64,000 nucleotides of DNA from an uncultured Clostridia bacterium (GCA_947589005.1 CANPZO010000004.1:21330-85329); one strand, 5' to 3'; positions 14,881-48,600 are shown, counted from the first letter of the stretch. Made by a program: numbers and translations. The notes: generated from the letters alone by a model not told the origin.

Positions 14881-14931
14881 ACTAACGCCACCTTTGATGA
14901 GGAGTAATTTTGTCGAATATAAAAGGCCGGT

Positions 14932-16086
14932 TTATATCTTGTTCTGCGTGCTGTAGCGCGAAATGTTCATAAGTATCCCCAGTCCGGCCAGCATGATTAT
15001 CATCGAGGTGCCGCCGGAGCTGAAAAAGGGGAGCTGCATACCGGTGGAGGGCAGTACGGAAAGCACCACGCCCACGTTTACTATCACCTGAAGGGCCACA
15101 ATGGAAACTATGCCGAAGCCCAGAAGGGTGCCGAAATTGTCCTTCGCGGCAAAGGATATCTGAATTCCGCGGAATATCAGCAGGGCAAACAGGGCCAGCA
15201 CTATCACTCCGCCCACAAAGCCCAGCTCCTCGCACACAATGGCGTAAATATAGTCGTTCTGCGCCTCGGGGAGATAGTCGTATTTCTGCCGCGACTGGCC
15301 GAAGCCAAGGCCAAGCAGTCCGCCGCTGCCAACGGCGTAAAGGGAGTTTACTATCTGCCAGCCGTCGCCTCTGGTGTCGGAAAACGGGTCAAGGAAAATC
15401 AGCAGGCGGCGGAGACGGTAAGGCTCCAGAAAGGCCAGCAGGCCGATGCCGACCGCGCCAACTCCCCCAAGACCAGCCAGCCAGCCCCAGGGCAGACCCG
15501 CCGCCACCAGCATTACGAAGCCCACCGCCACGATGAGCACCAGCGCCGACAGGTGGCTTTGGAGCACGCAGGCCAGGGCCACAAGACCCAGTATTATGGC
15601 AAATCTCATCACGTTCCGCCAGTTTTTGAGGTCGCTGTGCCTCTTGCTGGACAGCAGAGAGGCAAAGTATATGACCAGCACGAACTTGCAGACCTCCGAG
15701 GGCTGGAAGCTTATGCCGCCCAGCGATATCTGACGGGTAGCTCCGTGGGAAGCGAAGCCGATGATAGGCACCACGTACATGACGACCATGGTCGCCCAGA
15801 ACAGCGGAGCCGAAATTTTCTTATAAAAATGGTAGTCTATACGCGAGGTCACAAACATTGCCGCCAGACCCAGGGCCGCGAAGCCCAGCTGACGGAGGAT
15901 TATGGAGTATATATTCTCACGGCTGGTATTCTGGCTGGCCGAAAACAGCATTACAAGGCCGAAGCACAGCAGCCCGAAGACCAGCATGAACAGCATGAAA
16001 TCCACTCTTTCGTTTCGTTTGGGCCGGGTAACGATGCCGGACAAAAGCTTTGCTTCGGCAGTTTTTTTATTCCTCGTCCCTCTCAT
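14932..16086 (-). CDS. ftsW: SEDS-family peptidoglycan glycosyltransferase FtsW/SpoVE
   Basis: A 10-TM SEDS protein. Its position between mraY and murG is conserved in dcw clusters. Confidence 0.8.
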   Translation of the reverse strand: MRGTRNKKTAEAKLLSGIVTRPKRNERVDFMLFMLVFGLLCFGLVMLFSASQNTSRENIYSIILRQLGFAALGLAAMFVTSRIDYHFYKKISAPLFWATMVVMYVVPIIGFASHGATRQISLGGISFQPSEVCKFVLVIYFASLLSSKRHSDLKNWRNVMRFAIILGLVALACVLQSHLSALVLIVAVGFVMLVAAGLPWGWLAGLGGVGAVGIGLLAFLEPYRLRRLLIFLDPFSDTRGDGWQIVNSLYAVGSGGLLGLGFGQSRQKYDYLPEAQNDYIYAIVCEELGFVGGVIVLALFALLIFRGIQISFAAKDNFGTLLGFGIVSIVALQVIVNVGVVLSVLPSTGMQLPFFSSGGTSMIIMLAGLGILMNISRYSTQNKI

Positions 16087-16099
16087 TGGGATTCCTCCT

Positions 16100-17050
16100 C
16101 TACAGTCCCAGATAGGACAGGATACACAGAGCGGCCGTCGCCGCGGAAAATACGAACACTATTTTTGTCTCGCTCCAGCCGCACATTTCAAAATGGTGAT
16201 GTACGGGGGTCATCTTAAACACACGCTTGCCGGTGGTTTTGAAGGATATTACCTGGATTATTACGCTCAGAGTCTCGAACAGGAACACAAAGCCGCTTAT
16301 TATGAGGAAAAGCTCCAGTCCGGCGGCCGCCGCCGCACAGCCGAGGGCGCCGCCCAGGAACAGGCTGCCGGTATCGCCCATAAAAATTTTCGCGGGGTAA
16401 AAATTGTAAATGAGGAAGCCGAGGCAGGCTCCTACCACCGCCATCATCACCGCCGCGCAGTCCGCCTCGCCCCTCTGGGCGCAGGCCACGGCAAAAAACA
16501 GGGCCGCCACTGTGGTCACCGACGCCGCCAAGCCGTCCAGACCGTCGGTAAGGTTGACACTGTTGGTGGTGGCGAGGAGCACCAGCATTACGAAAGGAAT
16601 GTAGAACACGCCCAAATCAAGCTCTGCGCCGACAAAGGGCACGAGGGTCGCGCTCCGCCTTTCCACAAAGTAAACGTACAGTGCGAAGATAAGGCTCACC
16701 AGCGCCTGACAGGAAAACTTCTGCAAAGGCGTAAAGCCCTGATTGTGCTTTTTTACCACCTTGATATAGTCATCCACAAAGCCGATAAGCCCGAACAGCA
16801 TCGCTCCCGCTGTCACCGCGAGGCCCCTTACGCTGCCGGCACAGATGACTGCGCCCAGTCCCACGGCCAAAAGCATTGCTATGCCGCCCATGGTGGGTGT
16901 GCCCTGCTTTTTGGCGTGCCAGGAGGGTCCGTCCTCCAATATGCTCTGCCCGAATTTAAGTCTGCGCAGAAAGGGTATCAGCAGCGGCACAACCGCCGCC
17001 GTCACCGCAAGACCTATGGCTCCGGCAATCAAAACCATGGTTTCCATCAT
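16100..17050 (-). CDS. mraY: Phospho-N-acetylmuramoyl-pentapeptide transferase MraY
   Basis: Polytopic membrane protein carrying MraY-family motifs (DD.DGLAAS.., VNLTDGLDGLA). Confidence 0.9.
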   Translation of the reverse strand: MMETMVLIAGAIGLAVTAAVVPLLIPFLRRLKFGQSILEDGPSWHAKKQGTPTMGGIAMLLAVGLGAVICAGSVRGLAVTAGAMLFGLIGFVDDYIKVVKKHNQGFTPLQKFSCQALVSLIFALYVYFVERRSATLVPFVGAELDLGVFYIPFVMLVLLATTNSVNLTDGLDGLAASVTTVAALFFAVACAQRGEADCAAVMMAVVGACLGFLIYNFYPAKIFMGDTGSLFLGGALGCAAAAAGLELFLIISGFVFLFETLSVIIQVISFKTTGKRVFKMTPVHHHFEMCGWSETKIVFVFSAATAALCILSYLGL

Positions 17051-17062
17051 CTGTGCCCCCTG

Positions 17063-18475
17063 TTATTTCAGATTTTTCTCGTCCTCTATCTCGCGGACCA
17101 GCTCCCGTTCGTCCATGTGGAGCTTTTTTGTGCCGACTATCTGGTATGTCTCGTGGCCCTTGCCCGCCAGAAGGACTATGTCTCCCTCGTTGGCGGCCTC
17201 GAGAGCCGTCTTTATGGCCTCACGCCGGTCTTTCACGGCGATATGCTCTCCCCTTACCCCCTTCAGCACGTCGGCGATGATGGCCGAGGGGTCCTCGGTG
17301 CGGGGGTTGTCGCTGGTCACGACGCAAAGGTCCGACAGAGACGAGGCTATCTCCCCCATAATGGGGCGCTTGGTCCTATCCCTGTCCCCGCCGCAGCCGA
17401 AAACCGTGATTATCCGCCCGGGGGCAAATTCCCGCAGGGCGGTAAGCACCTTTTCGAGGCCGTCGGGGGTGTGGGCGTAGTCTATGTACACCCTGTATTT
17501 TCCTCTCGTGGGCACAAGCTCCATCCGTCCCGGCACGCTCCGGAACAGGCTCATGCCTCTTAAAACGCTTTTTTCCGGTATGTTCAGGCCAAGCGCGGCG
17601 CAGATGGCCGCAAGGCCGTTATATACGCTGAACCTTCCTCCCGGCGGCAGCTCCACCCGTCCTATGGGGCAGGTAAAGCTCACTCCCTCGGGAGAGCACA
17701 CTATGTTTTCCGCCCGGAAGTCGCCGCCGTCCACGCCGTAGGTCACGGCTCCGTCCGCCCGGCCGAGAAAATACCCCGCCCGAGGGTCGTCGGCGTTTAT
17801 CACCGAAAGGCGGCTGTTTTCCATGAGCAGTCCCTTGGCGGCGGCGTAATTGTCCATCGTGCCGTGAAAGTCCAGATGGTCGCGGGTCAGGTTGGTAAAC
17901 ACGCCCACGTCGAAGCTCAGGCCGTAGACCCTGTCCTCGGCCAAAGCGTGGCTGGACACCTCCATGGCGCAGACCCTGTCGCCGCTGTCCGCCATTTCCC
18001 GAAGCAGGGCGTGCAGCTCCTCGGGGCCGGGAGTAGTGCGTTCGGCGGGGGACCTGTGCCCTCCGGCGATGGTCTCCACCGTGCCTATAAGTCCGCAGCC
18101 CAGTCCCGCCGCCACAGCGACGGAGCGCACCATGTTGGCGACGGTGGTCTTGCCGTTGGTGCCGGTAACCCCGCAGAGCCTGAGCTCCCGTCCGGGGAAG
18201 CCGTAAAAGGCCGCCGACGCCAGAGCATAGCTCCGGCGGGAATTTTCGACTCTAAAATAATTTTCCAGCGGCAGCTCTCTCTCGCCTATGACCGCCGCGG
18301 CCCCCGTTTCAAGGGCCTTGGCGGCGAAGCCGTGGCCGTCGGTCAGGCTGCCCTCAAGGGCGAAAAACACGCTGCCGTCCTTTACCTTATCTGTGGAGCA
18401 GGTCACGCCGGCGACCTCACGGTCGGGGAGGCCGGCTTTTATCTTAAGAATTCCGAATAACTCAGAAAGTCTCAA
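17063..18475 (-). CDS. murE: UDP-MurNAc-L-Ala-D-Glu:meso-DAP/L-Lys ligase MurE
   Basis: Mur-ligase P-loop GVTGTNGKTT and the MurE-specific DNPR motif near the C-terminus (VTSDNPRTEDP). Confidence 0.85.
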   Translation of the reverse strand: MRLSELFGILKIKAGLPDREVAGVTCSTDKVKDGSVFFALEGSLTDGHGFAAKALETGAAAVIGERELPLENYFRVENSRRSYALASAAFYGFPGRELRLCGVTGTNGKTTVANMVRSVAVAAGLGCGLIGTVETIAGGHRSPAERTTPGPEELHALLREMADSGDRVCAMEVSSHALAEDRVYGLSFDVGVFTNLTRDHLDFHGTMDNYAAAKGLLMENSRLSVINADDPRAGYFLGRADGAVTYGVDGGDFRAENIVCSPEGVSFTCPIGRVELPPGGRFSVYNGLAAICAALGLNIPEKSVLRGMSLFRSVPGRMELVPTRGKYRVYIDYAHTPDGLEKVLTALREFAPGRIITVFGCGGDRDRTKRPIMGEIASSLSDLCVVTSDNPRTEDPSAIIADVLKGVRGEHIAVKDRREAIKTALEAANEGDIVLLAGKGHETYQIVGTKKLHMDERELVREIEDEKNLK

Positions 18476-18502
18476 GCTCTTACTCCTTTTTATTAAGAAA
18501 CG

Positions 18503-20848
18503 CTAATCGTCATCTTCGAAGGTCACATATACCGTGGTGCCCTGAGACACCACCGCCCCCGCCATAGGGCTCTGTCCGGCGGCCGTGCTTTCGTCTCCGG
18601 GCGGCCCCTGGCCCGAGACCTCCAGCTTAAGTCCGGCGGCCTTCAAAGCCTCCGCCGCCTGCTCGTAGGTCTTGCCCGTCACGGACGGAACCTTTGTCTC
18701 CTCTCCGCCGCTTTCTTCGTCAGTGTAAAGTATCACAAGGCTGTCGCTGTGTATGCGGGTGCCGGAGGCGGGCACCTGTCTTACGACTTTGGCGCCGGAG
18801 CCGTTTACCGAGGCCCTCAGCCCCATATCCGCTATCTCCTCCGCCGCCGCTTCCACGTCCTTGCCGGTGACGTCGGGCACAACAATGCGGACGGCGTTTT
18901 CGTCCTCGTCGCTGTACTGGGGCTCATAGCCAAGGCACTGGAGGGTGTCGGCTATTATGGAGCCGGCCACGGGCGCGGCGATTGTGCCGCCGTAGTACAC
19001 GCCGTTGGTAGGCTCGTCAAGTATTACAAGGCAGACTATCTCCGGGTCGTCCGCCGGCGCGAAGCCGACAAAGGAGGCCACGTGCAGCCCCCGGCCCGTG
19101 GGGTGCTTTTCACTGGTGCCGGTCTTGCCGCCGATGCGGTAGCCCTGCACGTAGGCGGATTTGCCGCCGCCCTCGGAAACAACCTTCTCCAGCACCTCGC
19201 GCATGGTCTTGCTGGTCTCCTCGGAAATTACCTGACGGACTATGACCGGATCCACGTTTTCGATAGTCTTTCCCTCGCTGTCGGTGTAACGGCTTACTAT
19301 GTGGGGTTCCATCAGATAGCCGCCGTTTACCACGGCGCTTACCGCGCACACCATCTGAAGGGGAGTAACGGTGAAGGTCTGGCCGAAAGAGCTTGTAGCC
19401 AGCTCCACAGGGCCCAGTTCCTCAAGGCTGTGGTGCTGACCGGCGGTCTCGCCGGGGATAAGGAAGTTGGTCTTTTCCGTAAGGCCGAAGGCCTTAAAAT
19501 ATTTGTCGAATTTCTCCGCTCCCAGCCTTGCGCCCACCTCCATGAACACGGGGTTGCAGGAGTTCTTTATGCCGTCCACGAAGGTCTCGGCCCCGTGGCC
19601 GTCTCTGTTTGAGCAGTGAATTGTCGTGTCCGCCACGACTTTGGAGCCGGTGCAGTAAAACTGGTCGTCAAGACTTACCACTCCCTCCTCAAGGGCGGCG
19701 GAGGCCACCACCGTTTTAAAGGTAGAGCCGGGCTCGTAAGAGTCCACGACTGCCTTGTTCCGCCGCATTTTAAGGAGGACTTGGCTATACGCTTCTTCGT
19801 AGGAAAGCGCTTTTACGTTCTCGTCGCCGGGGTCGGGCTCGCCGGCCTCTATACGGCGCCGGGCCGCGTCGTACTCAGCCTCGCTGTCGGCCACCAGCTT
19901 ATCTACCTGCGCCAGGAGCGTGGGGTCGGTTATCTGACTGTAGTTCGACGGGTCATAGGAGGGCACGCAGGCCATGGCCAGAATTTCCCCGGTTTTGGGG
20001 TTCATGACTATGGAGGCCGCTCCGTTGTTCAGCTTGTTTTCCTCGTAAGCTATCTGAAGATAGTTTTCCACTATCTTTTGTATCCTGATGTCGATGGTGA
20101 GCACCACGTTGTTGCCGTCCTTGGCGGCCTCGTAGGTCTCGTTTTTGTAGGGCATATCGCCGTTGCCGGCGCTTTTGGCCGCCTGGACCCGTCCGGCGGT
20201 GCCGCTCAGCTCGTCGTCCAGTATGTTTTCCAGTCCCTCGAGGCCCTGCCCGTCCTTGCCGGTAAAGCCAAGGATATGAGCGGCAAGAGTGCCGTTGGGA
20301 TAGCTGCGCTTGGCGTCGCCCACGAACTCTATGCCCGCGAGATTTGCCTTGCGCACCTTATCCGCGAGGGATTTCTCCACATTGGCCTTTACCTCCACGG
20401 AGGTCCGTTCGGTCTTGGCCAGCTGGGTACGCAGCCATTCCTCCGAAACACCCAGCTCCGTGGTCAGCACCTCCACCACCTTTTCGGTCAGCTCGGTGTT
20501 CTCGTAATTGTCTATAAAGGTCTTACCGCTGCTCTTGGCCTTGGCCTCGGCCTCGTCACGGTCCTTGCGGGCCTTGGCCTCGGTCTCGCTGATGAGCTTG
20601 GGATTGATGTATATGCGCTCGGCGGTGCTGCTGCTGGCGAGGGTCTCGCCGTTTATGTCGTAAATCGTGCCTCTTTTCGAAGCTATTTTCTGATTTCTCG
20701 TCTGCAAAAGACGCGCCCCGGCCTTAAGCTCGGCCCCCTGGACAAACTGCCGCCAGACCAGCGCCCCGGTAAGAAAGACAAAGCAGGCCATAAAAGCGGC
20801 CATTATTATCCGTATTCGCTTTTTTATCGTTAATTTTCCCTTGTTCAT
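18503..20848 (-). CDS. Class B penicillin-binding protein (FtsI/SpoVD-like) with C-terminal PASTA domains
   Basis: Dimerisation and transpeptidase domains (SxxK, SxN, KTG(T/S)) and two PASTA repeats at the C-terminus. The start was chosen at MNKGK, with a GGGGTGAG RBS. Confidence 0.85.
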   Translation of the reverse strand: MNKGKLTIKKRIRIIMAAFMACFVFLTGALVWRQFVQGAELKAGARLLQTRNQKIASKRGTIYDINGETLASSSTAERIYINPKLISETEAKARKDRDEAEAKAKSSGKTFIDNYENTELTEKVVEVLTTELGVSEEWLRTQLAKTERTSVEVKANVEKSLADKVRKANLAGIEFVGDAKRSYPNGTLAAHILGFTGKDGQGLEGLENILDDELSGTAGRVQAAKSAGNGDMPYKNETYEAAKDGNNVVLTIDIRIQKIVENYLQIAYEENKLNNGAASIVMNPKTGEILAMACVPSYDPSNYSQITDPTLLAQVDKLVADSEAEYDAARRRIEAGEPDPGDENVKALSYEEAYSQVLLKMRRNKAVVDSYEPGSTFKTVVASAALEEGVVSLDDQFYCTGSKVVADTTIHCSNRDGHGAETFVDGIKNSCNPVFMEVGARLGAEKFDKYFKAFGLTEKTNFLIPGETAGQHHSLEELGPVELATSSFGQTFTVTPLQMVCAVSAVVNGGYLMEPHIVSRYTDSEGKTIENVDPVIVRQVISEETSKTMREVLEKVVSEGGGKSAYVQGYRIGGKTGTSEKHPTGRGLHVASFVGFAPADDPEIVCLVILDEPTNGVYYGGTIAAPVAGSIIADTLQCLGYEPQYSDEDENAVRIVVPDVTGKDVEAAAEEIADMGLRASVNGSGAKVVRQVPASGTRIHSDSLVILYTDEESGGEETKVPSVTGKTYEQAAEALKAAGLKLEVSGQGPPGDESTAAGQSPMAGAVVSQGTTVYVTFEDDD

Positions 20849-20987
20849 ATATCTCACCCCTATGCCCGAATAAAACAACAAACGGAGAGTGAAGCTTCAC
20901 TCTCCTCCCGGCGCGGTAAGCCGCCGTCGGCTGTTCCGCTTAGGGTGTCTGCGAAATTCGCATCGGCACTACAAACTTACTTCCGCA

Positions 20988-21494
20988 TCAATAAAAATAT
21001 TCCGCAATGGCCGCAATTTTATTGAAAAATGCGTTCATGCCAACATTGCTGTCGTCCTCGGCGAGTATCTCGCCGCTGTCCTCGTCGTCAAGAGAGATGT
21101 ATACCACCTGGTCCCGATTTACCTTGTAAAGCCCCATTTCCGCGGCTTTCTCCTCGGAGGCCGTCACCATGGACGCCCCTTCGGTCTCGGCGGCAAGCTG
21201 ATCCACCTGCGCCTCGAGGGCGGTGAGCTCGTCCTTCTTCTGGCCGAGAGTGCGGTAGCCGGTGTTGAGGCTGGCCATGAGCGTCAGCACAAAGGACGCC
21301 ATTACCGCAAGGGCGACGGTGGCGACAAATATCGCGGCCTTTCCCTGCCCCGTAAGGCCCCGTCTGTGGGGATGGCGGCGCGTCTGCGGCTTTCGGGCCG
21401 GACGCTCGGGCTCCGCATACGCCTCTTTGAGGGCGCTGGAGCCGTTCACGGGAAATTCTTCTTTTAATGCGTTGGAACCGTTGATTTTCTGCAT
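20988..21494 (-). CDS. ftsL: FtsL-like cell division protein
   Basis: Small bitopic protein with one transmembrane helix and a coiled-coil, in the conserved position between rsmH and the PBP gene. Confidence 0.55.
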   Translation of the reverse strand: MQKINGSNALKEEFPVNGSSALKEAYAEPERPARKPQTRRHPHRRGLTGQGKAAIFVATVALAVMASFVLTLMASLNTGYRTLGQKKDELTALEAQVDQLAAETEGASMVTASEEKAAEMGLYKVNRDQVVYISLDDEDSGEILAEDDSNVGMNAFFNKIAAIAEYFY

Positions 21495-21506
21495 CTCATC
21501 ATCCCA

Positions 21507-22442
21507 TTAATCTGTTATTTTTTCCGCCACCCGGAGCTTGCTGCTCCTGGCTCTGGGATTTGCCGCCAGCTCCTCCCTGCCGGGAGTAACGGGCTTGCGG
21601 GTAACGACTCGCACCTGGGGCTTTTTGCCGCATACGCAGACCGGAAAATCCTTCGGGCAGGTGCAGCCTCTTTCCAGCTGGGCAAAGGCCGTTTTCACTA
21701 TCCTGTCCTCAAGGCTGTGAAAAGTTATCACCGCCATTCTGCCGCCCTTTTTCAGGGCGCGGACGCCGCTTTTGACCGCGTCCTCCAGAATTTCCAGCTC
21801 TCCGTTTACTTCTATCCTTATGGCCTGAAAGGTCCTTTTCGCCGGATGGGGACCGTCGCGTCGGGCTCCGGCGGGCACCGCGGCCTTTATTATGTCAACC
21901 AATTCAAATGTGGTCTCAATGGGCTTTTTTCTGCGCCTTTCGTCTATGAAGCGGGCTATCCTCGAGGCCCATCGCTCCTCGCCGTATTCGCTGATGACCC
22001 GAAACAGCTCCTCCTCGCTGTAGCCGTTGACCACGTCGCGGGCGGTAACGCCGCCGCCGGTGTCCATCCTCATGTCCAAAGGCGCGTCGTGCATATAGGA
22101 AAACCCGCGCTCGGGCTTGTCCAGCTGAGGCGAGGACACTCCCAAATCGGCAACGATGCCGTCGGGTCTGCCGGCCCCGATTTTCTCAAGTATGGCCTCG
22201 ATATTTCTGAAATTGTCGTGTACCGGAATAAACCTGCCGCCCAAGTCCCCGAACCTTTCTTTACAGGCGGCGAGGGCGCTTTCGTCCCGGTCGATGCCTA
22301 TCACGGCGCCCCCTTTTTCCAAAATCAGGGCCGTGTGGCCTCCGCCCCCCAGGGTAAAGTCCACGTAAAGGCCCCCCGGCCGGACGCAAAGGCTGTCCAC
22401 CGTTTCATTGGCCAGCACCGTAACATGGCTGAACTCGCTCAT
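21507..22442 (-). CDS. rsmH: 16S rRNA m4C1402 methyltransferase RsmH (MraW)
   Basis: The N-terminus ([23 protein letters not shown]) is the RsmH SAM-binding signature. Confidence 0.9.
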
Positions 22443-22909
22443 TACAGACCTCTCTTGAGCCTGTCCATTTCCTCGGCGGACTTTTCAAGGCTCCTGTCGC
22501 CGCTGCCGCTGTAATTCTCCCAGCGTTCCCTGTCCCAAATTTCCAGATGGTCGCCCACGCCCATTATCATGACTTCTTTGGTAAGGCCGGCGTATTCCCG
22601 GTGATAGGCCGGAAGCAGTATCTTGCCCTGCTTGTCCGGCTCGGGCATCTCGGCGCTGGAAAGAATGGTACGTATGGAATAGCGGACGTCGCTGTTGGTA
22701 TATGAAAGGACGGTCAGCTCCTCGCTGTACCTGTCCCACTGCTCGCTGTCGTAAACGCTGAGGCAGGCGTCGTAGCCCATGGCTACGCAGAAGCCCTCGC
22801 CCAGCAAATCGCGGTATTTCGCGGGCATGGTAATGCGGCCCTTGGTGTCCATGGACACGTAGGCCCTGCCGATGTAACGCTTTTTCCTGATCGGAGCCGT
22901 ATTTTCCAC
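22442..22909 (-). CDS. mraZ: Transcriptional regulator MraZ
   Basis: Tandem MraZ/SpoVT-AbrB-like halves ([13 protein letters not shown].. and [11 protein letters not shown]..). Uses a GTG start. Confidence 0.85.
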
Positions 22910-25434: not shown

Positions 25435-25549
25435 CGTTCTTTCTCCCATTAAATATTCCCAATGATTATATCACCGCGGCCGCCAAATGTCAACAAAAAA
25501 ATAACGCCGGAGGGACCAAAACCGTCCCTCCGGCAAAAAGAGCAAAATT

Positions 25550-25804
25550 TTATTCGGCCGTTTCGGGCTCCGCTTCGGGCGCGGGCTCAGCCGGGGCTTC
25601 CTCGGCCTCGGCGGTCTCTTCCGCCGCCGGCTCGGTCAGCTCCTGAACCTCCGTCTCCTCCGCGGCCTTACGCGCCCGGCCGCGAAGCACAAGGCAAACC
25701 GTCACAACGGCGGCGGCCACCGCCAGCAACGCGGATATCGCCACTATCAAAGTGATGAGCGCGTTGTTCTCGCCGTCGGACTTCTCATAGCTTATGTACT
25801 TCAT
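25550..25804 (-). CDS. Small membrane protein with an acidic Ala/Glu/Pro-rich tail
   Basis: One transmembrane helix, then a PAEEA-type low-complexity tail. It overlaps the amidase stop by 4 nt, which suggests translational coupling. Confidence 0.4.
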   Translation of the reverse strand: MKYISYEKSDGENNALITLIVAISALLAVAAAVVTVCLVLRGRARKAAEETEVQELTEPAAEETAEAEEAPAEPAPEAEPETAE

Positions 25805-26643
25805 TTTGCCGCCTCCTCTTCTTCAAAATACATTTCAAGACCGTTGACTATGCCGTCAACTATTTTATCCTGGTATTCCTCCGTGGACAGCGCCGCGTCC
25901 TCCTCGGGATTGGTCATAAAGCCCATTTCCAGCAGCACTACCGGCACGGTGGACCAGTTGAAGCCTGTCATGTCGGAACGGGGCGAAAGGCCCCTGTTCT
26001 GCGCGCCGGTGCTAAGCGCCGCCTGCTCGAGTATGAGTTCTCCGGCCCTGTGGCTCTTATCCAGAAGCTCCCGGTCGGAAATGTGGTCGCCGGTGGGTAT
26101 GAGCATGGACATACCGCTGACGCCGGAATTTTCGCTGCCGTCGGCGTGGAGCCTGACCACCAGCGCGGCCCCGGCCTTGTTTGCGAATTCCGCACGGCCC
26201 ACGTTGCTCAGCTCGCACTCGGCGGTGCGGCGGGTCATCAGCACCTCGGCCCCCAGCTCCGCCAGTCTCTGCTCAAGCTTCAGTCCCACAATGAGATTGA
26301 GCTGTTCCTCGGTGTAGACCGCGCCGGAGGTTCCGCTGACAAAGGCGGGCTTGGTGACCGTGCTGCCGGGGGCCACGGGCTCCTGATAGTTGGAGCCGAA
26401 AACACAGTGGCCCGGGTCAATGCAGATGATTTTCCCGCTGAGCGCCGAGGTCTCCTCGGCCACGGGGACCTCCTCAGCGGGGAGCTCGTCCCCGGCGGCC
26501 CCGACGTCCTCAACGGGCGTTTCGGCAGAGGTATCCTCACGGCGTTCACCGGCGGAGTCGTCATTCTTCTGAGGGCCGCAGCCGCACATCATCAGCAGTG
26601 CGGCCACGAGCACCGAAATCAGTTTTTTGAGTGCTACTTCCAC
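25801..26643 (-). CDS. N-acetylmuramoyl-L-alanine amidase (Amidase_3, CwlD/AmiC type) lipoprotein
   Basis: Lipobox LMMCGC. Amidase_3 motifs are present (ICIDPGH, LHADGSENS.., metal-binding E/H). Confidence 0.75.
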   Translation of the reverse strand: MEVALKKLISVLVAALLMMCGCGPQKNDDSAGERREDTSAETPVEDVGAAGDELPAEEVPVAEETSALSGKIICIDPGHCVFGSNYQEPVAPGSTVTKPAFVSGTSGAVYTEEQLNLIVGLKLEQRLAELGAEVLMTRRTAECELSNVGRAEFANKAGAALVVRLHADGSENSGVSGMSMLIPTGDHISDRELLDKSHRAGELILEQAALSTGAQNRGLSPRSDMTGFNWSTVPVVLLEMGFMTNPEEDAALSTEEYQDKIVDGIVNGLEMYFEEEEAAK

Positions 26644-28478
26644 CCTTTATCCTCCTCATACGACATCAGGGTGTTCAGGTTGGCCCTCTCTATATCCGAA
26701 AACATCGACACAACCGTATTCTGGTCGGAATACATGGGAACGTACCAGGACTTCGAGCCGAAGTAGTTCTTGTACTCGTCCTTATTAAATATATAGCCGT
26801 GACGGGCGTAAAGCTCGTTGCGCATAAGGGCCACCGTGTCACGGTCAAGGCCGTCCAGATCCCCGTAGGTTATATACTGGGTGTCGCTGGGATAGAGATA
26901 GTCGCCGTCTCCGCTGTCATAATCATCATAACCGTAATCATCGTAATCATAATCATCGAAATCGTAGTCGCCGAAGTCACCGTAATAGTCATAGTAGTCA
27001 TCGTCGCCGCTGTTATTGCTGTTTACGGCCGCGTCTATTATTTCGCTCAGCTTGTTCTTGTCGATGTTCGGATTGCCCTGATTGCTCAAGGTGAGGTCAA
27101 AGCTCATCTTCTGGCCGCCCATGTCAACGGATAAGTTTATGCCGTCCAGATATCCGTCGTCCAAGGTCACGGAGCCGTTGACGCTTCCCTGGCTGTCGGC
27201 GTCAAGCTTAATGCTGAAGCTCTCAAGATATTTTTCGCTTCTTTCAATCGTGACGGAAATGCCGACGTTCTCTCCCTCGACTTCCATGGAGAATTCCAGT
27301 TCCATTGTTTTGGGAGTGTCGCCGTCATAGGTGATGGTGCAGACGGGGCCCTCGAGCTTGTACTCGTCTGCCATATCCGCCACCTGCTCCTTGATCTCGT
27401 CGAGATCCACTTCCTCTTCATTCATGCCGTCGAGGATACCCTGCGCCGTCTCCTGGAATTCGCCGGTGCCGTTTTCGGCGGCGTATTCAATGAACTCGAA
27501 GAACAGCTCCGCGCTGCCCGCAAGGTCCAGCGAATACTCGATGGAGCTGTCGGTCTTGCTTATTTTTACGGCCTTTTTGGCGGCATCCTCGTTGTCGCTG
27601 CTGAAATCCTCAAGGAGCTTTTGCAACTCCTTGAACTCCTCATTGTTCTCGACGGCGCTCATGGGGTCTCTGAGGTCGATGGGTATGCCGGCATTGTCAT
27701 AATACTGCTGGGCAAAGTCTATCAGCGCGTCCATGTCTATGCCGCCGTCTTTGATCAGATCTCTGATGTCTAAGCCGATTTCCCGCTCAAGCTCGTCCAA
27801 AGCATCGGTCATAAGCCCATATTGGCCGCCGTTGTAAGCGGCAAGGTCTCCGTCGTAAAGCGCCACTTCTCCGGTTTCGCCGCCGGCCGAGACCTTCACG
27901 TAAGCGGCGGAATCGTCAAAATCGTCGCCAAGGGAATAATAGCCGGATATCCCGACGGTTTCGCCGGAAACGGACACCTTCGCGTCAAAGTTGGCGCCGG
28001 ACATGGAGGGGCTCTTATCAAGATTTTCGAAGAAGCCGGCGATGGCCTCTATGTCCTCCGCCCAGGTGTCGCCGCCCTTATTGTTCGCTTTGCCGCCGAT
28101 GCTCTTTCTTTCGCCGTTCTCGTCGTGGAACAGGTTGAACACGTCCGCCGCCGGAACAAAATACATGGCGAGGGCGCTGCCGCCGCAGAGCACCAACAGT
28201 GCCGCCGCGACAATGGCCGCCACAATGGGCCAGCGTTTTTTGGCCTTGGGCGTAACCGGCGCCTCATAGGGCGCGGGCTCGGGGGTGGGAACATTCGCGG
28301 GGGCCTGCGGCTGATAGCCGGCGGCGTTCTGCGCGTTCCACTGCTGATTTTGCTGTAAATCCTGCTGAGCTTGGTTCTGCTGAGTCTGGGGCTGCTGCAC
28401 GGGCGAGCCGCATTCGTTGCAGAAATTTACTCCTTCGGGCAGCTGGGCCCCGCACTTTTTACAAAACATAATTTTCAA
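26634..28478 (-). CDS. Zinc-ribbon / TM / extracellular region / D-Y-rich linker / C-terminal YARHG domain protein
   Basis: N-terminus MFCKKCGAQLPEGVNFCNECG (CxxC-N9-CxxC), a Q-rich linker, one transmembrane helix, and an acidic Asp/Tyr run (DDYDYDDYGYDDYD). The C-terminus LYARHGYIF is the name-giving YARHG motif. Confidence 0.6.
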   Translation of the reverse strand: MKIMFCKKCGAQLPEGVNFCNECGSPVQQPQTQQNQAQQDLQQNQQWNAQNAAGYQPQAPANVPTPEPAPYEAPVTPKAKKRWPIVAAIVAAALLVLCGGSALAMYFVPAADVFNLFHDENGERKSIGGKANNKGGDTWAEDIEAIAGFFENLDKSPSMSGANFDAKVSVSGETVGISGYYSLGDDFDDSAAYVKVSAGGETGEVALYDGDLAAYNGGQYGLMTDALDELEREIGLDIRDLIKDGGIDMDALIDFAQQYYDNAGIPIDLRDPMSAVENNEEFKELQKLLEDFSSDNEDAAKKAVKISKTDSSIEYSLDLAGSAELFFEFIEYAAENGTGEFQETAQGILDGMNEEEVDLDEIKEQVADMADEYKLEGPVCTITYDGDTPKTMELEFSMEVEGENVGISVTIERSEKYLESFSIKLDADSQGSVNGSVTLDDGYLDGINLSVDMGGQKMSFDLTLSNQGNPNIDKNKLSEIIDAAVNSNNSGDDDYYDYYGDFGDYDFDDYDYDDYGYDDYDSGDGDYLYPSDTQYITYGDLDGLDRDTVALMRNELYARHGYIFNKDEYKNYFGSKSWYVPMYSDQNTVVSMFSDIERANLNTLMSYEEDKGWK

Positions 28479-28484
28479 CTCCTA

Positions 28485-29291
28485 TCAATAAACTTCTATT
28501 TCGCTGATGCACGTATCGCTCCACGTGTCGCCGGGATATACCTCGTCGACAGTTATCTTAATGTAGTTTGTCCTGACCGTCCTGCTGAATGACACGTCCT
28601 GATACAGGGCGTCCTCGCCCTCGCTGAACACGTCCGCCAGCTCGGCCTCGACCGAGCTGCCGTCAGAAAACGAAACCGTTATCCTCTTGGGTCGGCTGTT
28701 CGGATAATACTGCCACTTGCCGGTTTTGGCGTTGAACTTGTTGTAGCCGTTCAGTATCTTAAGGCCCGAAACGTACTGGTCGTCGGAGGCGGAAAGCATT
28801 ATCCACTCGCCCTCTCCTCCGCTGACGGCCCAGGCCGTATCCGTATACCCGTCCACAGCCAGCTTTGGGGAGTGGTCATAGCCCTCCTCGATGAGGGTGT
28901 CGGAGGCGCTCACCGAGCTGAACACCGGCAGGGCGTGGACTTCATCCTCCCGCGCCTCTTCCGGTTCCTCGGTTTTTTCCGGCTCTCCGGTCCTTTCGGA
29001 GGGTTCCGTCTCCTCCTCGGCGGGCGGTTCCTCCCCGTCGGCGGTAGCGGCCTCCTCCGTCTTTTCCTCCGTCTTTTCGGAGCCGTCCGACGTCAGCTTG
29101 ATGGCCGTCACCGTCACGGCCGCCGCTATCACCAGCAGCGACACCGTTATCAGCACCGCGGGCCAGACGCGCCTTTTACGGGGCGGGGAGGCCGGCACCG
29201 GCGCCCCGCCCGTAGGGGCGCCGCAGACGGTGCAGAACTGTGAGTCGTCCGGCAGACGCGCTCCGCAGCTTTCGCAAAACATAACCGTCAC
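28485..29291 (-). CDS. Zinc-ribbon / TM / discoidin (F5/8 type C)-like ectodomain protein
   Basis: N-terminus MFCESCGARLPDDSQFCTVCG, one transmembrane helix, and an E/T/P-rich linker. The C-terminal ~130 aa (AVDGYTDTAWAVSGGEGEWIMLS..) matches the discoidin domain pattern. Confidence 0.5.
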   Translation of the reverse strand: MTVMFCESCGARLPDDSQFCTVCGAPTGGAPVPASPPRKRRVWPAVLITVSLLVIAAAVTVTAIKLTSDGSEKTEEKTEEAATADGEEPPAEEETEPSERTGEPEKTEEPEEAREDEVHALPVFSSVSASDTLIEEGYDHSPKLAVDGYTDTAWAVSGGEGEWIMLSASDDQYVSGLKILNGYNKFNAKTGKWQYYPNSRPKRITVSFSDGSSVEAELADVFSEGEDALYQDVSFSRTVRTNYIKITVDEVYPGDTWSDTCISEIEVY

Positions 29292-29292
29292 C

Positions 29293-30099
29293 TCAGGCCG
29301 CTTTCCTGTTGTACCATTTCTTTTTGAAAACCGTTATAAGTATGAACACAAGTATGCTGAGACCTATGGCCACGGCAACCGATATTCCGTTGCCCACATA
29401 TATCTCGACACCCTTGGGCGCGTCCTCAAGGGCCGACTGCGCGGCGTTATTGATAAAGAGCATTACCGCGCCGAAAACCGCCGAGCACAGGAACGCCAGC
29501 GCCGAGCCTATCTGTCCGAGCACCGCGCCAAACCGCGGCGCGACATGGGTGAGGGCGGCAAAGAGGATTAGCAGGGCGATGACAAGAATAAGCACGCCCG
29601 AGAAAATCAGGAATATTATATCCATAACATTGAACAGGTTCTTTACGTCCTCGGCGTCCTCGGTCGATTCGGCGTCAATGGCGGCGGTGAAGAGGTCGGA
29701 GTTGTAAAGGTGCATAAATCTGGAAATGCCAAAGATGGAAACGGACACGCCGAGCTCAAACTCTTCCACATTGTTTTCCTCAAAGGCTTCCGTCGTTTTC
29801 TCGTCAAAGTCCATTTCGTCAATGGGGGCCTTCATTTTGAAAGAAAACCAGCCGAGCATAAGCGACACCGCCAAAAGCATGGCCAGCACGGTGCAAAGGG
29901 CCTTTGTTCCGCCGCCCTTTACCGGAGCGGCCGCCGGAGCCGGAGCGGGCTGGGGCTGAACGGGCTGAAGGGGCTGAGGCCGAACGTTCTGAACGGGCTG
30001 AGGCTGAGGAACGGTCTGTTCCTGCTGCACGACGGCTCCGCAGAGGTTGCAGAACCGGGCGTCGTCGGCTATTTCGCCGCCGCAGTTTTTACAAATCAT
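29293..30099 (-). CDS. Zinc-ribbon / polytopic membrane protein
   Basis: N-terminus ICKNCGGEIADDARFCNLCG, a Pro/Gln-rich linker, then 3-4 transmembrane helices. Confidence 0.5.
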   Translation of the reverse strand: MICKNCGGEIADDARFCNLCGAVVQQEQTVPQPQPVQNVRPQPLQPVQPQPAPAPAAAPVKGGGTKALCTVLAMLLAVSLMLGWFSFKMKAPIDEMDFDEKTTEAFEENNVEEFELGVSVSIFGISRFMHLYNSDLFTAAIDAESTEDAEDVKNLFNVMDIIFLIFSGVLILVIALLILFAALTHVAPRFGAVLGQIGSALAFLCSAVFGAVMLFINNAAQSALEDAPKGVEIYVGNGISVAVAIGLSILVFILITVFKKKWYNRKAA

Positions 30100-30133
30100 T
30101 TTCTATTCCTCCCTTAAAATTTATATTTGAAAA

Positions 30134-31303
30134 TCAATAATCCCAGTAGTCGTCGTAATAGTCGTAGTCGTCCTGCCCGTCCTCGCACTCGTCCAGGAAG
30201 TCCTTGATGTCGTCCTCGTCTATGTCGGGCTTGTTGTAATTTTCTATTTCAAGAGAAACCTTTCCCTCGTCGTAGCTCATCTCCAGCGAGGCCAAACGTC
30301 CGCCCTTGGTGCTGTACTCGACGTCGATGACTATCTCGCCCTTTCCTTCCCTGAGCGCGGACTTGACTTCCTTAAGGTTGTCATCAAACACGTTTTCCTC
30401 TAAGAACTTGGCCGCTTCCTTCACCTTTTTGTTGCCGCTGTCCTTGCAGTCCTCAATATAGTCGATGAAGGCCAGTCCCAGCTTCGCCACGTCCACGGAA
30501 TAGCTGTACTTTCCGCCGGACTTTTCATAATCGTCGATGAAGCTCTTCCAAACCTTGGACTTGTTGCACTCTTTGAAAATGAAATCATTGATCATCTTCG
30601 CCATGCCCTCGACCATATCCTCGTCGTAGTCCTCGGGCTTCGCGTCCTCGGCGAGTTCCTTTATGTACTTTTCGTTGAGCTTTCCGTTCTTTACAAGCTT
30701 GTTGATGTCCACCTTGATGCCGAGTTCCTCAAGGGACCCGTTTAGCTCATCCTCAACTTCGTCAAGGAAGTCCTTGTAAAATCCATAATATTCCCCGTCC
30801 TCTGTCATACCGAGGTCGCCGTCGGCAAAGGCCACGCGAACGGTATCGCCGTCCATTCTACCCTCAAGCTCCATCAAGCTGTGCTCGGTGTCCTTGCCCA
30901 GCTTGAAGCTGAGGTCTACGTCGAAATTATCATACCCCGCATCCAACGAAGCACTGATGTCGGCGCCCTTCATTCCCTTAAGGTTGGCGGCGGCCTTGAT
31001 GGTCCTGGCCAGGGGATTTGAGCGGGTGAACAGCACGGCCAGCACGACGGCAATCACCGCCAAAACTCCGACCGCGGCCAGTATCGGGGTTTTGCTCTTC
31101 TTATTTGCCGGCGGCATATAGACCCCGTCGGCGGAATACTGTGCGGCCGATTGAGCGTTTACCTGCTGATAGTTCGACTGTTGAGCATTCGACTGTTGAG
31201 CGTTCGACTGCTGAGCGTTCCCCGCCCCTGTCGAATCCCAGCCGCATTTGGGGCAGAACCTCGACCCCTCATTGATGGCCGTCCCGCAGTTTTTACAAAA
31301 CAT
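30134..31303 (-). CDS. Zinc-ribbon / TM / acidic ectodomain protein, paralogous to the middle of the YARHG gene
   Basis: N-terminus MFCKNCGTAINEGSRFCPKCG, a (QQSNA)n linker, and one transmembrane helix. The K/E/D-rich ectodomain ends in DDYDYYDDYWDY. Confidence 0.5.
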   Translation of the reverse strand: MFCKNCGTAINEGSRFCPKCGWDSTGAGNAQQSNAQQSNAQQSNYQQVNAQSAAQYSADGVYMPPANKKSKTPILAAVGVLAVIAVVLAVLFTRSNPLARTIKAAANLKGMKGADISASLDAGYDNFDVDLSFKLGKDTEHSLMELEGRMDGDTVRVAFADGDLGMTEDGEYYGFYKDFLDEVEDELNGSLEELGIKVDINKLVKNGKLNEKYIKELAEDAKPEDYDEDMVEGMAKMINDFIFKECNKSKVWKSFIDDYEKSGGKYSYSVDVAKLGLAFIDYIEDCKDSGNKKVKEAAKFLEENVFDDNLKEVKSALREGKGEIVIDVEYSTKGGRLASLEMSYDEGKVSLEIENYNKPDIDEDDIKDFLDECEDGQDDYDYYDDYWDY

Positions 31304-31499
31304 TTACATTCCTCCTTTAAAATCCGGCAACGCGCAAAGGACGCAAAGGAGCCTCGCGCGTTATTGACCCGTTAACTGTAATTACATTATAACACTTTTT
31401 AGAAAAATGTCAAGAAATATGTTACTTTTTTACTTGACAAATTCGTGGGTTTGTGGCATGATAATAAATTGAGAGTTTATGGTTACAGGAGGTATCCCC

Positions 31500-33688: not shown

Positions 33689-34027
33689 ATGTGTACGGAG
33701 CCGAAAGCTCAAGAGCTTTCGCGAATTGTGGCGAAATATTTCCGCAGTGTTTACGGCGAAAGCGTTGACTGCGTGTTTCTCTACGGTTCGTATGCAAGGA
33801 GAAATTTTGACGAAAATTCCGACATAGATATAGCCGCCATTGTTGACGGCGACCGAGCCGAGCTGCAAAACAAGCTTAAGTCAGTCTGGGATATGGCCGC
33901 CGAGCTGGGGCTGGAAAACGACGTCATCATATCACCCACCGTTATCCCCCGCAGCGAATTTGAGGAATATAAGAACGTGCTGCCCTACTACCGCAATATT
34001 GCAAGGGAGGGAAAGAAAATTGGTTGA
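33689..34027 (+). CDS. Minimal nucleotidyltransferase (MNT, Pol-beta superfamily), one half of a HEPN/MNT toxin-antitoxin-like pair
   Basis: GS..(D/E)..D(I/V)D motif: LYGSYARRNFDENSDIDIAAIV. Confidence 0.7.
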   Translation: MCTEPKAQELSRIVAKYFRSVYGESVDCVFLYGSYARRNFDENSDIDIAAIVDGDRAELQNKLKSVWDMAAELGLENDVIISPTVIPRSEFEEYKNVLPYYRNIAREGKKIG

Positions 34028-34415
34028 TTTGAGCAAATACAGGCTTGACAGCGCCAGAGAAAGACTTAACTCCGCCAAGCTACTCATGGAAGCCGGTCAA
34101 TATCGCGACTCGATAAGTCGTTCGTATTACGCCATTTTTACGGCTGTCCGCGCTGTGCTGGCAAAAGACAGCGTTGACTTTTCCAAGCATACCGGAGTAA
34201 TATCCTATTTTCAAAGGGAATATGTAAAAACCGGAATTTTTGACAAAAAATTTTCAAATTATCTTCAAGCGGCATTTCAAATAAGAAACAATTGCGACTA
34301 CGACGACTTTTTTATCGCATCAAAGGACGATGCCGCCGAGCAATACGAAAGGGCCGAGGAATTTTACAATACCGTAAGCGCCTATCTTAACAATCCCAAC
34401 GCATCACTTCATTGA
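34020..34415 (+). CDS. HEPN domain protein, partner of the MNT
   Basis: A probable TTG start overlaps the MNT stop by 8 nt, with a GGGAGGG RBS. Helical HEPN-like sequence (R.SYYAIFTAV...R....DY). This is the typical HEPN/MNT bicistron. Confidence 0.55.
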   Translation: MVDLSKYRLDSARERLNSAKLLMEAGQYRDSISRSYYAIFTAVRAVLAKDSVDFSKHTGVISYFQREYVKTGIFDKKFSNYLQAAFQIRNNCDYDDFFIASKDDAAEQYERAEEFYNTVSAYLNNPNASLH

Positions 34416-41620: not shown

Positions 41621-41699
41621 CATTAATTCATAGTTTTGATTATATCACAGGGTTTTCATTACATAAATTTGGCTTAAATAAAGCCTTTATGCTAAAATG

Positions 41700-41832
41700 G
41701 GGGCCCCCGCAAAACGGCGAAGCCGATTTTGTGGGGAAAAGGAGTCACAGCGAGGTAAGCCGAGTTTCGATTTTAAATCGAAACTTGCGATACCGAGCTT
41801 GTGGCGACGCAGGTCTGCGCCATTTTTTTACG
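41700..41832 (+). ncRNA. Candidate small RNA or transcribed element with its own promoter-like sequence and terminator
   Basis: An extended -10 (TGCTAAAAT) lies at about 41686-41694. A perfect palindrome gtttcgatttt/aaatcgaaac is at 41776-41796. A GC hairpin plus a T8 run is at 41803-41830. There is no plus-strand ORF downstream. Confidence 0.3.
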
Positions 41833-41841
41833 GCCCCTGTT

Positions 41842-41994
41842 TTACCAAACGGCCTCATCACTGGCGGCGGGATCGGTCACGACCTTTTCATTGTCTATGC
41901 CGGGTATCTCCCCGCTGGCGGTGATGTCGTCCATGACCGAATTAACGGGAGAAAGGTCGCGGACGTCTATTTCAGGCTCGAAAAACTTTTTCAT
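41842..41994 (-). CDS. Unannotated 50-aa acidic peptide gene immediately downstream of the giant protein gene
   Basis: GGAGGA sits 7 nt upstream of the ATG. It encodes MKKFFEPEIDVRDLSPVNSVMDDITASGEIPGIDNEKVVTDPAASDEAVW and starts 19 nt after the upstream stop. It is below the ORF-track cutoff. Confidence 0.4.
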   Translation of the reverse strand: MKKFFEPEIDVRDLSPVNSVMDDITASGEIPGIDNEKVVTDPAASDEAVW

Positions 41995-42012
41995 CGTTAT
42001 TTCCTCCTTTTA

Positions 42013-46497: not shown

Positions 46498-46621
46498 GTA
46501 TCTCTCTCCTTTTTTAATAGTTATTTTCATTATATACTAATTGCACATATTTGTCAAGGGGAAAAGAGGGTGTTTTTTCGCAATATGCACATTTCAAACG
46601 AAATGTCGCAGCGTCCCCGCG

Positions 46622-47873: not shown

Positions 47874-48395
47874 TCAATTTATCCTGTATTTTTCGATTTG
47901 CGACCCAAGGTAGCGTTGCATGAGCCATATCGTGACGACCCGCACGGGCAGCATCACCGCCGCCTGCACCAAGCGGTCAGCCAGCACCGCCCAAACGCCG
48001 TTATGATATATCGGCACCAGCGCCAGCGGCATGGCGACCAAATCCACCGCCACGGTTATGGTGAGGACGCAAATTATTATCCTTGGCAGCGTCACCGTTT
48101 TTTTATAGAAATACAGGCCGAAAATCATGCCGAAGATGAACTTGCACACCGTTATCGGCGGAAAAGGGGCCTGCCCGGCGGCCAATGTGCCGATCAGGTC
48201 GGCCACCACATAGGTGGCCCCGCCCCATATGGGGCCCATGAGCATACCCGCGGCGCACACGGGCAGAAAGCCCAAATCGTAGCGTGTGTTACCCGTCTGC
48301 GGATAGCCCATCAGCCTGAGAACCACGCTCAGGGCCGACATCGCGGCCACCAGTACGATGATGTGGGTGAGGTTTTTTTTCATAAACAAAAACAT
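47874..48395 (-). CDS. folT: Folate-family ECF transporter S component (FolT)
   Basis: About 170-aa, 5-6 TM S-component. It is adjacent to folC and preceded by a THF riboswitch. Confidence 0.7.
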   Translation of the reverse strand: MFLFMKKNLTHIIVLVAAMSALSVVLRLMGYPQTGNTRYDLGFLPVCAAGMLMGPIWGGATYVVADLIGTLAAGQAPFPPITVCKFIFGMIFGLYFYKKTVTLPRIIICVLTITVAVDLVAMPLALVPIYHNGVWAVLADRLVQAAVMLPVRVVTIWLMQRYLGSQIEKYRIN

Positions 48396-48489: not shown

Positions 48490-48600
48490 TTTCGTAGCAA
48501 CGGAATGCGGGCCGCGCACCGCGAAAGCTCGGGGCTCTCTTCGTAGAAAGGACAACTTCCCGTTCCTCTCTCACTTTACGCGCGCGGTCCTACTTTGCAC
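48490..48600 (-). ncRNA. THF (tetrahydrofolate) riboswitch
   Basis: The minus-strand RNA reads AGUAGG-ACCGCG-CGCGUAAAGUG-...-GGGAAG-...-ACGAAGAGAG-...-CGCGG-...-GCUAC. This matches the conserved blocks GAGUAG / CGCGUUAAGUG / GGGAUG / ACGAAGCGAGAG / CGCGG of known THF aptamers. It sits in a folT leader. Confidence 0.65.

Follow-up and report, generated by a model that had tools for sequence, protein, structure and literature searches.

YARHG-domain membrane anchor and Ami1-like amidase genes form a conserved pair within a predicted envelope operon of an uncultured Clostridia bacterium

Two cell-wall amidases of the Amidase_3 type, LytH of Staphylococcus aureus and CwlD of Clostridioides difficile, are known to need dedicated partners, ActH and GerS, respectively (PMC9245657, PMC8496864). 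The YARHG domain was defined in 2012 by Coggill and Bateman as extracellular, with peptidoglycan or a moiety close to it as its proposed ligand; it is also found fused to Ser/Thr kinases, and a role as ligand sensor was put forward (PMC3355149, PMC3848476). Among 290 YARHG proteins 73, all Gram-positive (for example A5KMW1), carry an N-terminal zinc ribbon and a membrane helix in addition; these were proposed to be tethered transcription factors (PMC3355149). The sole solved YARHG structure is a four-helix bundle with a ligand of unknown identity (PMC3848476). In this study we describe a gene for a zinc-ribbon/YARHG membrane protein (G4) and, next to it, a gene for a putative amidase lipoprotein of the Amidase_3 family (G5). 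They lie within a block of six minus-strand genes, G1 to G6, in a stretch of 64,000 nucleotides (nt) from an uncultured Clostridia bacterium (GCA_947589005.1 CANPZO010000004.1:21330-85329), which we call the window. The architecture of G4 is identical to that of the 2012 class. However, the 2012 work dealt with fused domains only and reported neither gene neighbourhoods nor a link to Amidase_3 (PMC3355149), and the word 'amidase' is absent from both YARHG papers (PMC3355149, PMC3848476). A full-text search of the literature mentioning YARHG revealed no experimental function, and we found no report of a YARHG-amidase pairing, although the zinc-ribbon/YARHG architecture has been known since 2012.

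We show that this gene pair is conserved across species. When an alignment of the amidase was searched against one genome per species, 80 loci were obtained; 20 of these have a YARHG gene as their direct upstream neighbour in the same orientation, spaced by -13 to +18 nt. With the 25 closest amidases the number of paired loci is 15. The reverse search, using a YARHG alignment against metagenome contigs, again gave 80 loci, of which 17 have an amidase gene immediately downstream and one has it immediately upstream; 9 of the 13 closest YARHG domains with room downstream are amidase-paired. The gene order is the same in 37 of 38 pairs. Carriers of the pair are Agathobaculum, Intestinimonas, Butyricicoccus, Flavonifractor, Cellulosilyticum and several metagenome-assembled genomes of Clostridia and Bacillota. 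About 17 of the 20 paired YARHG proteins have an N-terminal ribbon and one membrane segment, and at least three (from loci L029, L035 and L081) have no ribbon. Order and junction of the pair persist at amidase identities of 40-56%, while the flanks all change: the genes flanking the block in the window, including the dcw cluster, are absent from all 20 paired genome loci. When the neighbours in the 38 paired loci were compared all against all, two families alone recurred throughout, the amidase in 38 loci and the zinc-ribbon/YARHG proteins in 37. Since the flanks differ and only two families recur, the pairing is not merely inherited synteny. An earlier note on this DNA, made from the window alone, had described all six genes as one envelope module and suggested that a zinc-ribbon array might be linked to the amidase in related genomes. 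The linkage to the amidase is indeed conserved across species, but the broadly conserved unit consists of two genes, not six. Judged from these comparisons, the conserved core is the pair of YARHG anchor and Ami1-like amidase.

The junction between the two genes is conserved as well, down to the DNA sequence. The putative Shine-Dalgarno sequence of G5, GAGGAGGA, sits within the G4 codons for Y-E-E-D. The GGRTGG-stop junction recurs across species, the YARHG protein ending in Y-E-x-x-x-G-W-R/K-stop, and the amidase start in paired loci lies either within the Gly-Trp codons of GGRTGG or overlaps the stop codon as TAATG.

The full order G1 to G5 was found in one divergent relative only, locus L170, where G1 (44% identity), G2 (31%), G3 (45%), G4 (35%) and the start of G5 follow each other with an identical overlap. 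In locus L007 a zinc-ribbon/discoidin gene, a zinc-ribbon/YARHG gene and the amidase gene (corresponding to G3-G4-G5) stand in order, with three further ribbon genes upstream, and G6 has no detectable homologue in related loci. About one pair in four has extra ribbon-anchored genes nearby, which carry TPR, beta-propeller-like or polytopic domains. Some of the polytopic ones resemble G2 in architecture, but homology to G2 was not detectable. In two Paenibacillus genomes the upstream slot is taken by a zinc-ribbon/VWA protein instead. In one sub-clade of six loci the amidase gene is followed by a gene for a large acidic polytopic protein resembling TM7S3/TM198 (L017 10884-13028; L019 5109-7328; L028 10794-12362; L029 10744-12375), which may be a third component there. 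We also noted a locus (L167 9928-18176) in which a different zinc-ribbon/YARHG protein, of 610 amino acids (aa), is followed by a second membrane protein with a zinc ribbon, an ABC transporter with an FHA domain, a Ser/Thr kinase and the phosphatase PP2C, with no amidase. This hints at a second, signalling-type context for the zinc-ribbon/YARHG architecture.

G5 matches the Pfam family Amidase_3 (PF01520) with 128.8 bits against a cut-off of 27 (E 3e-37), and the metal ligands and catalytic Glu (H79, E112, H166, E239) are invariant in 34 homologues and in further amidase alignments. The N-terminus starts with MEVALKK and continues with a hydrophobic core and M-C-G-C22, where the family consensus is L-x-G-C; positions -2 and -3 of G5 are atypical, and Cys22 is conserved in at least 90% of the homologues. 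The closest solved sequences are mycobacterial Ami1/Rv3717 (7agl 7e-15; 4m6g 3e-13), and the alignment spans an insertion of about 30 residues behind the first zinc-binding His. In an AlphaFold model built from 34 sequences (mean predicted local distance difference test score, pLDDT, of 89 and above 96 in the catalytic domain) this insertion is a beta-hairpin. The best Foldseek matches of the model are again Rv3717/Ami1 (root mean square deviation, rmsd, 1.9 Å; target-normalised template modelling score, TM-score, 0.85-0.88), which rank above CwlV, LytH, CwlD and AmiA/B/C. G5 is nevertheless not the Rv3717 equivalog, as it scores 94.7 bits against that NCBIfam model (NF038140) with a cut-off of 335; the score for CwlD (TIGR02883) is 59.7 bits, below the cut-off of 221.55. 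Neither an extra helix of the AmiA/B/C type nor a wall-binding domain was found in G5. The description that suits G5 best is that of an Ami1-like amidase, predicted to be a lipoprotein, whose acidic tether is disordered and which has no wall-binding domain.

Rv3717 is likewise described as having no wall-binding domain; it is reported to bind its substrate via net positive charge and to be autoregulated by its hairpin (PMC3852659). Ami1/Rv3717 is the best match of G5 in sequence and fold and shares with it the hairpin insertion and the missing wall-binding domain, but G5 differs in being a strongly acidic predicted lipoprotein, with a net charge of -16 in the catalytic domain. This strongly acidic domain suggests that G5 cannot use the electrostatic way of Rv3717 to the wall. 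The 21 paired enzymes are all acidic (median -11), whereas unpaired relatives have a median of -3.5 and range up to +20 (Mann-Whitney p = 2e-5, ignoring shared ancestry). We know of no partner for Ami1. The likeness to LytH-ActH and CwlD-GerS lies in the combination of a membrane-associated Amidase_3 enzyme with a second protein, either a membrane protein or a lipoprotein, that touches the enzyme through its extracellular domain in the two described systems (PMC9245657, PMC8496864). The G5 model superposes on LytH and CwlD with target-normalised TM-scores of 0.84-0.90. However, the partner folds differ, being TPR in ActH, a beta-sheet lipoprotein in GerS and a four-helix YARHG domain here, and Ami1/Rv3717 resembles G5 more closely. 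Searches of Pfam and NCBIfam with G1-G4 and G6 gave no match of TPR, rhomboid or GerS-like type, and thus none of them is a homologue of ActH or GerS by these searches. The Gram-negative amidases AmiA/B/C with EnvC/NlpD are comparable in that a wall amidase is under control of a separate envelope protein. However, they possess an autoinhibitory helix and activators with a LytM domain, which is not present in the operon of the window, and the fold similarity of G5 to AmiA/B/C is weaker (target-normalised TM-score 0.48-0.77, rmsd 3.4-4.5 Å).

The YARHG domain of G4 (PF13308) scores 66.8 bits against a cut-off of 27 and contains 'LYARHGY' as well as the invariant C-terminal Glu of the YARHG alignment. 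Its profile matches PDB 4g2a, the solved structure mentioned above, at 5.4e-14. In G4 the basic cluster PKAKKRW precedes the single transmembrane segment, a topology that would place the YARHG domain outside the cell. A word-indexed homologue search with full-length G4 was of no use: it gave 2 matches and was swamped by low-complexity words from the Q-rich and D/Y-rich parts.

Like G4, the products of G1, G2 and G3 start with a zinc ribbon. All four match Pfam Zn_Ribbon_1 (PF13240), whose gathering cut-off is 25 bits (G1 28.3, G2 26.7, G3 32.5, G4 31.8), and all have Cys at positions 3, 6, 17 and 20 and begin with M(F/I)C. The opening motif that the earlier note had seen in the four genes is thus real; it is merely the generic Zn_Ribbon_1 consensus, C-x2-C-x10-C-x2-C. 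We take it as a sign of family membership rather than of recent duplication. No further open reading frame (ORF) in the 64-kb window begins with this motif, and four of them in a row are therefore not due to chance. In L170 every one of the four ribbon genes pairs one-to-one with its counterpart in the window, so the four genes were already distinct before the lineages split. Hydropathy indicates a single transmembrane segment each in G1, G3, G4 and G6. Basic clusters (KKSK, KRR, KAKKR) precede the first membrane segment of the ribbon proteins, which by the positive-inside rule predicts cytoplasmic ribbons and C-terminal domains outside the cell. The cytoplasmic part then comprises the 21-aa ribbon and a linker that is low in complexity and varies widely in length (16-55 aa), in which searches of Pfam and NCBIfam revealed no recognisable DNA-binding or enzymatic output domain. 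Two operonic membrane proteins of Lactococcus lactis, Llmg_0524 and Llmg_0526, carry the same C-x2-C-x10-C-x2-C motif and bind zinc stably; deletion of the motif impaired growth and raised lysozyme resistance, and the motif acts as a stable structural zinc site, not as a sensor (PMC4628341). The ribbons of G1-G4 are most likely stable cytoplasmic zinc knobs, with zinc binding predicted. The L. lactis proteins and TcaA of S. aureus resemble the ribbon proteins described here in having the motif at the N-terminus, a transmembrane helix and an extracellular chain, but in both cases the YARHG domain and the adjacent amidase are absent. Models of the TcaA extracellular domains (PF22819 and relatives) gave no match in G1-G4 at E up to 0.1; a TcaA_5th match was seen only in a Paenibacillus zinc-ribbon/VWA neighbour.

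With regard to the parts outside the membrane, the four ribbon proteins had been thought to carry four different ectodomains. This does not hold: the ectodomain of G1 is homologous to the membrane-proximal residues ~111-480 of G4 (BLASTP 3e-15), and G4 can therefore be read as a G1-like module plus YARHG. In a search of 1.84 billion proteins the middle region of G4 matches the G1 orthologue P0124 (E 5.9e-5). Both modules terminate in N-x-N-K/P-P/N-D/I-I-D, followed by a D/Y-rich stretch. A word search with the G1 ectodomain gave one non-self homologue only, and the exhaustive search of the same 1.84 billion proteins with the G4 module gave 8 matches and no useful alignment. The module appears to be an orphan. 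An AlphaFold model of G1 from 4 sequences was unusable (pLDDT 43). The Asp/Tyr-rich acidic-aromatic stretches, found before YARHG in G4 (Table 1) and at 30137-30172 (-) at the C-terminus of G1, read for example DDYDYDDYGYDDYD; the one in G4 is kept in the L170 orthologue. G2 shows three hydrophobic stretches in hydropathy, the middle one long enough for two helices, and probably has four helices; its sole detectable orthologue is L170_b (31% identity). G3 carries a discoidin domain of the NADase type (NADase_transloc, PF25302, 67.1 bits against a cut-off of 27; NCBIfam NADase_discoid, NF047619, 97.8 against 38), while it stays just under the cut-off of the generic F5_F8_type_C model (27.3 against 28.2 bits); orthologues in matching position exist in L170 and L007. 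In G6 the basic cluster RGRARK behind the helix suggests that the tail is cytoplasmic.

An ORF listing of the window confirmed six minus-strand ORFs lying head to tail at 25550-31303. Gaps measure 34 nt between G1 and G2, 10 nt between G2 and G3 and 15 nt between G3 and G4; G5 and G6 overlap by 4 nt (ATGA). For G3 and G4 the listed ORFs begin at an upstream GTG or TTG, and an ATG three codons inward, behind a Shine-Dalgarno sequence, gives the MFC start. A separate gene call on identical metagenome contigs arrived at the same lengths for both (265 and 611 aa). A promoter-like site precedes G1 (Table 1), and the leader of about 82 nt between it and the ATG has no significant RNA fold (z 0.77). 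The terminator-like hairpin behind G6 is the sole strong one for the block, and no comparable signal lies inside. Past it, at 25493-25465, a second perfect promoter match would serve the next gene, a glycoside hydrolase of family GH127. Rfam and tRNA searches of the operon region gave no matches. Promoter, terminator and short gaps or overlaps lead us to read the block as an operon, and their placement fits one transcription unit, so that co-transcription is predicted. In these respects the earlier note was right: block, spacings and the assignment of zinc-ribbon, YARHG, discoidin and Amidase_3 domains were all borne out, the domains by profile scores above curated cut-offs, and its proposal of a co-transcribed module agrees with the predicted signals.

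Table 1. Features of the six-gene block and its putative transcription signals (positions in the window)
Feature	Position	Strand	Description
Promoter-like site upstream of G1	31386-31413	-	TTGACA, 16 nt, TATAAT plus extended TG; 12/12 consensus positions (sigma-70 type)
G1	30134-31303	-	389 aa; zinc ribbon residues 1-21, Q/N-rich linker, transmembrane helix 73-93, acidic orphan ectodomain, D/Y-rich tail
G2	29293-30099	-	268 aa; zinc ribbon, P/Q-rich linker, polytopic membrane domain
G3	28485-29282	-	265 aa; zinc ribbon, transmembrane helix, acidic linker, NADase-type discoidin (F5/8 type C) putative glycan-binding domain 28491-28919
G4	26634-28469	-	611 aa; zinc ribbon, Q/P-rich linker, transmembrane helix, G1-like module 27030-28139, D/Y-rich spacer 26898-27005, YARHG 26655-26888
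G4 stop/G5 GTG start overlap	26634-26643	-	10 nt; G5 start within Gly-Trp codons of G4 C-terminus
G5	25801-26643	-	280 aa; predicted lipoprotein N-acetylmuramoyl-L-alanine amidase; signal peptide with Cys22 (26578-26580), acidic linker ~45 aa, catalytic domain 25834-26427
G6	25550-25804	-	84 aa; single-pass, acidic C-terminal tail
Intrinsic-terminator-like hairpin	25505-25535	-	12 pairs, 9 G-C, then T-run; 15 nt past G6 stop

How might these proteins work together? The tight translational coupling, the nearly fixed order and the persistence of the pair while its surroundings change lead us to propose that G4 and G5 act jointly. The operon would be expressed vegetatively and encode a membrane-proximal peptidoglycan amidase system. 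In this system G5 would be an active Ami1/Rv3717-type Amidase_3 enzyme, held as a lipoprotein on the extracytoplasmic side of the membrane and lacking a wall-binding domain of its own. G4 would be its conserved bitopic partner, with a small cytoplasmic Zn(Cys)4 ribbon and, at its outermost extracellular end, the four-helix YARHG domain. As the two genes would be translationally coupled, both proteins would be made together. The YARHG domain may bind peptidoglycan and/or the amidase and would thereby position or regulate stem-peptide cleavage near the membrane; G4 could either supply wall binding through YARHG, or contact the enzyme physically and tune it directly. G1-G3 would be lineage-specific accessories on the zinc-ribbon anchor, probably in the same envelope assembly, with G3 contributing a glycan-binding discoidin domain and G1 representing a YARHG-less copy of the proximal module of G4. 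The ribbons would hold the proteins in their N-in orientation and may take part in contacts with other proteins. We hold this partner-associated amidase system, with the YARHG protein positioning or regulating the enzyme, as a tentative reading to which we give nearly, though not quite, an even chance.

Several points weigh against it. The 60 of 80 loci in which related amidases have no YARHG neighbour indicate that this enzyme type does not generally need a YARHG partner, and many YARHG genes, one of them in the FHA/kinase/PP2C cluster, have no amidase neighbour. It is attractive to think of YARHG as a substitute for a fused wall-binding domain. However, 7 of 58 unpaired amidases and none of 21 paired ones have a fused SLH or SH3_3 domain, which is not significant (p ~0.1, hypergeometric estimate), and we rejected this idea. 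A partner-dependent metal site might be expected to alter catalytic or metal residues, yet these are alike in paired and unpaired amidases, and a search for changes specific to the paired enzymes found none. The difference in charge is confounded by shared ancestry, no structure was obtained for the orphan module of G1 and G4, and co-transcription of the six genes is a prediction.

It might also be that the block encodes independent envelope proteins that share their timing without forming a complex, the ribbon plus transmembrane segment being a generic N-in anchor in Firmicutes. We consider this unlikely, but by no means far-fetched, as accessory zinc-ribbon genes differ widely from locus to locus (TPR, VWA, beta-propeller-like, polytopic), G1, G2 and G6 are lineage-restricted, and zinc-ribbon membrane proteins are common in other contexts. 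However, independence leaves it hard to explain, without functional dependence, why the order of YARHG followed by amidase and its junction persist at 40-56% identity and why all pairs but one share that order. In a somewhat more doubtful alternative the direction is reversed: YARHG would sense either a product of the amidase, namely free stem peptides or denuded glycan, or some other cue from the wall, which the ribbon would relay inward, akin to a membrane-tethered regulator or PASTA-type sensing, so that the amidase generates a ligand and is not itself regulated. The YARHG-kinase fusions and the published proposals of a sensor and a tethered transcription factor (PMC3355149, PMC3848476) are in line with this, as is the zinc-ribbon/YARHG gene adjoining the FHA-ABC, Pkinase and PP2C genes. 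Against sensing speaks that the cytoplasmic part offers only the short ribbon and its variable linker with no output domain, that no regulator, sigma factor or kinase is conserved beside the pair in the 38 paired loci, that at least three paired YARHG proteins have no ribbon at all, and that the L. lactis motif is a stable structural zinc site (PMC4628341). A signalling role of the ribbon is therefore possible, if poorly supported.

Much less probable, to the point that we hardly expect it, is a prophage lysis cassette of endolysin and holin-like G6, or a CwlD-type sporulation or germination amidase. G5 does match endolysin PHROGs via Amidase_3 and shows weak CwlD similarity, and G6 is small, single-pass and directly behind G5. 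However, apart from the Amidase_3 domain and a general family of zinc ribbons the PHROGs search of the operon gave nothing phage-like, housekeeping genes flank the block, G5 is a predicted lipoprotein with its own signal peptide, and G6 is not conserved. A sporulation role is further contradicted by a CwlD score far under the cut-off, by the fold being nearest to Ami1/Rv3717 and by a promoter of vegetative sigma-70 consensus.

Coming back to the partner-associated amidase system, one could go further and suppose that YARHG proteins are an unrecognised class of amidase partners in Clostridia and their relatives, which bind the Ami1-like lipoprotein amidase on the outside of the cell and activate, restrain or localise it, with their ribbons, and those of the co-encoded G1-G3, coupling this control to a cytoplasmic partner. 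We regard this wider proposal as speculative and rather unlikely. If it were true, there would be transmembrane control of wall hydrolysis with a logic like that of FtsEX-EnvC-amidase. Since its definition in 2012 the widespread YARHG domain has stayed a 'domain in search of a function', and the pairing offers a concrete enzyme that can be assayed. The pairing with one amidase type also lends support to the earlier supposition that YARHG has its role at the wall. How dedicated partners control wall hydrolases is an active topic with a possible antibiotic angle, and to our knowledge such control is almost unexplored in gut Clostridia. The hypothesis is testable, since two cultured strains are carriers (Intestinimonas aquisgranensis CLA-AA-H199 and Agathobaculum sp. 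Marseille-P7918).

Several other features of the window deserve mention. Downstream of the operon, beyond the GH127 gene and a gene for a small membrane protein, lies a dcw cluster at 13786-22909 (-) with mraZ, rsmH, a 168-aa gene, a penicillin-binding protein with PASTA domains, murE, mraY and ftsW; the 168-aa gene occupies the ftsL position and has no Pfam match. Adjacency to this cluster was dropped as evidence, being absent from every YARHG-paired genome locus. At 33689-34415 (+) a nucleotidyltransferase (NTP_transf_2/Polbeta) and HEPN pair, toxin-antitoxin-like, adjoins the gene for topoisomerase IV subunit A. A 1597-aa ORF at 41689-46482 (+) has no Pfam match at E 1e-5, and a 1505-aa ORF is open opposite to it at 42013-46530. 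A tetrahydrofolate (THF) riboswitch at 48496-48599 (-), scoring 81.9 bits against a gathering threshold of 36, stands directly upstream of the S component of an energy-coupling factor (ECF) transporter at 47874-48395. Two genes contain intein-like insertions. An 810-aa C-5 cytosine DNA methylase at 51683-54115 (-) is apparently interrupted by an intein with a LAGLIDADG homing endonuclease (DNA_methylase, Hint_2, Intein_splicing and LAGLIDADG_3 matches), and a DNA polymerase III alpha ORF at 61007-63985 (-), which runs to the window end, has Hint/intein domains between its polymerase domains.

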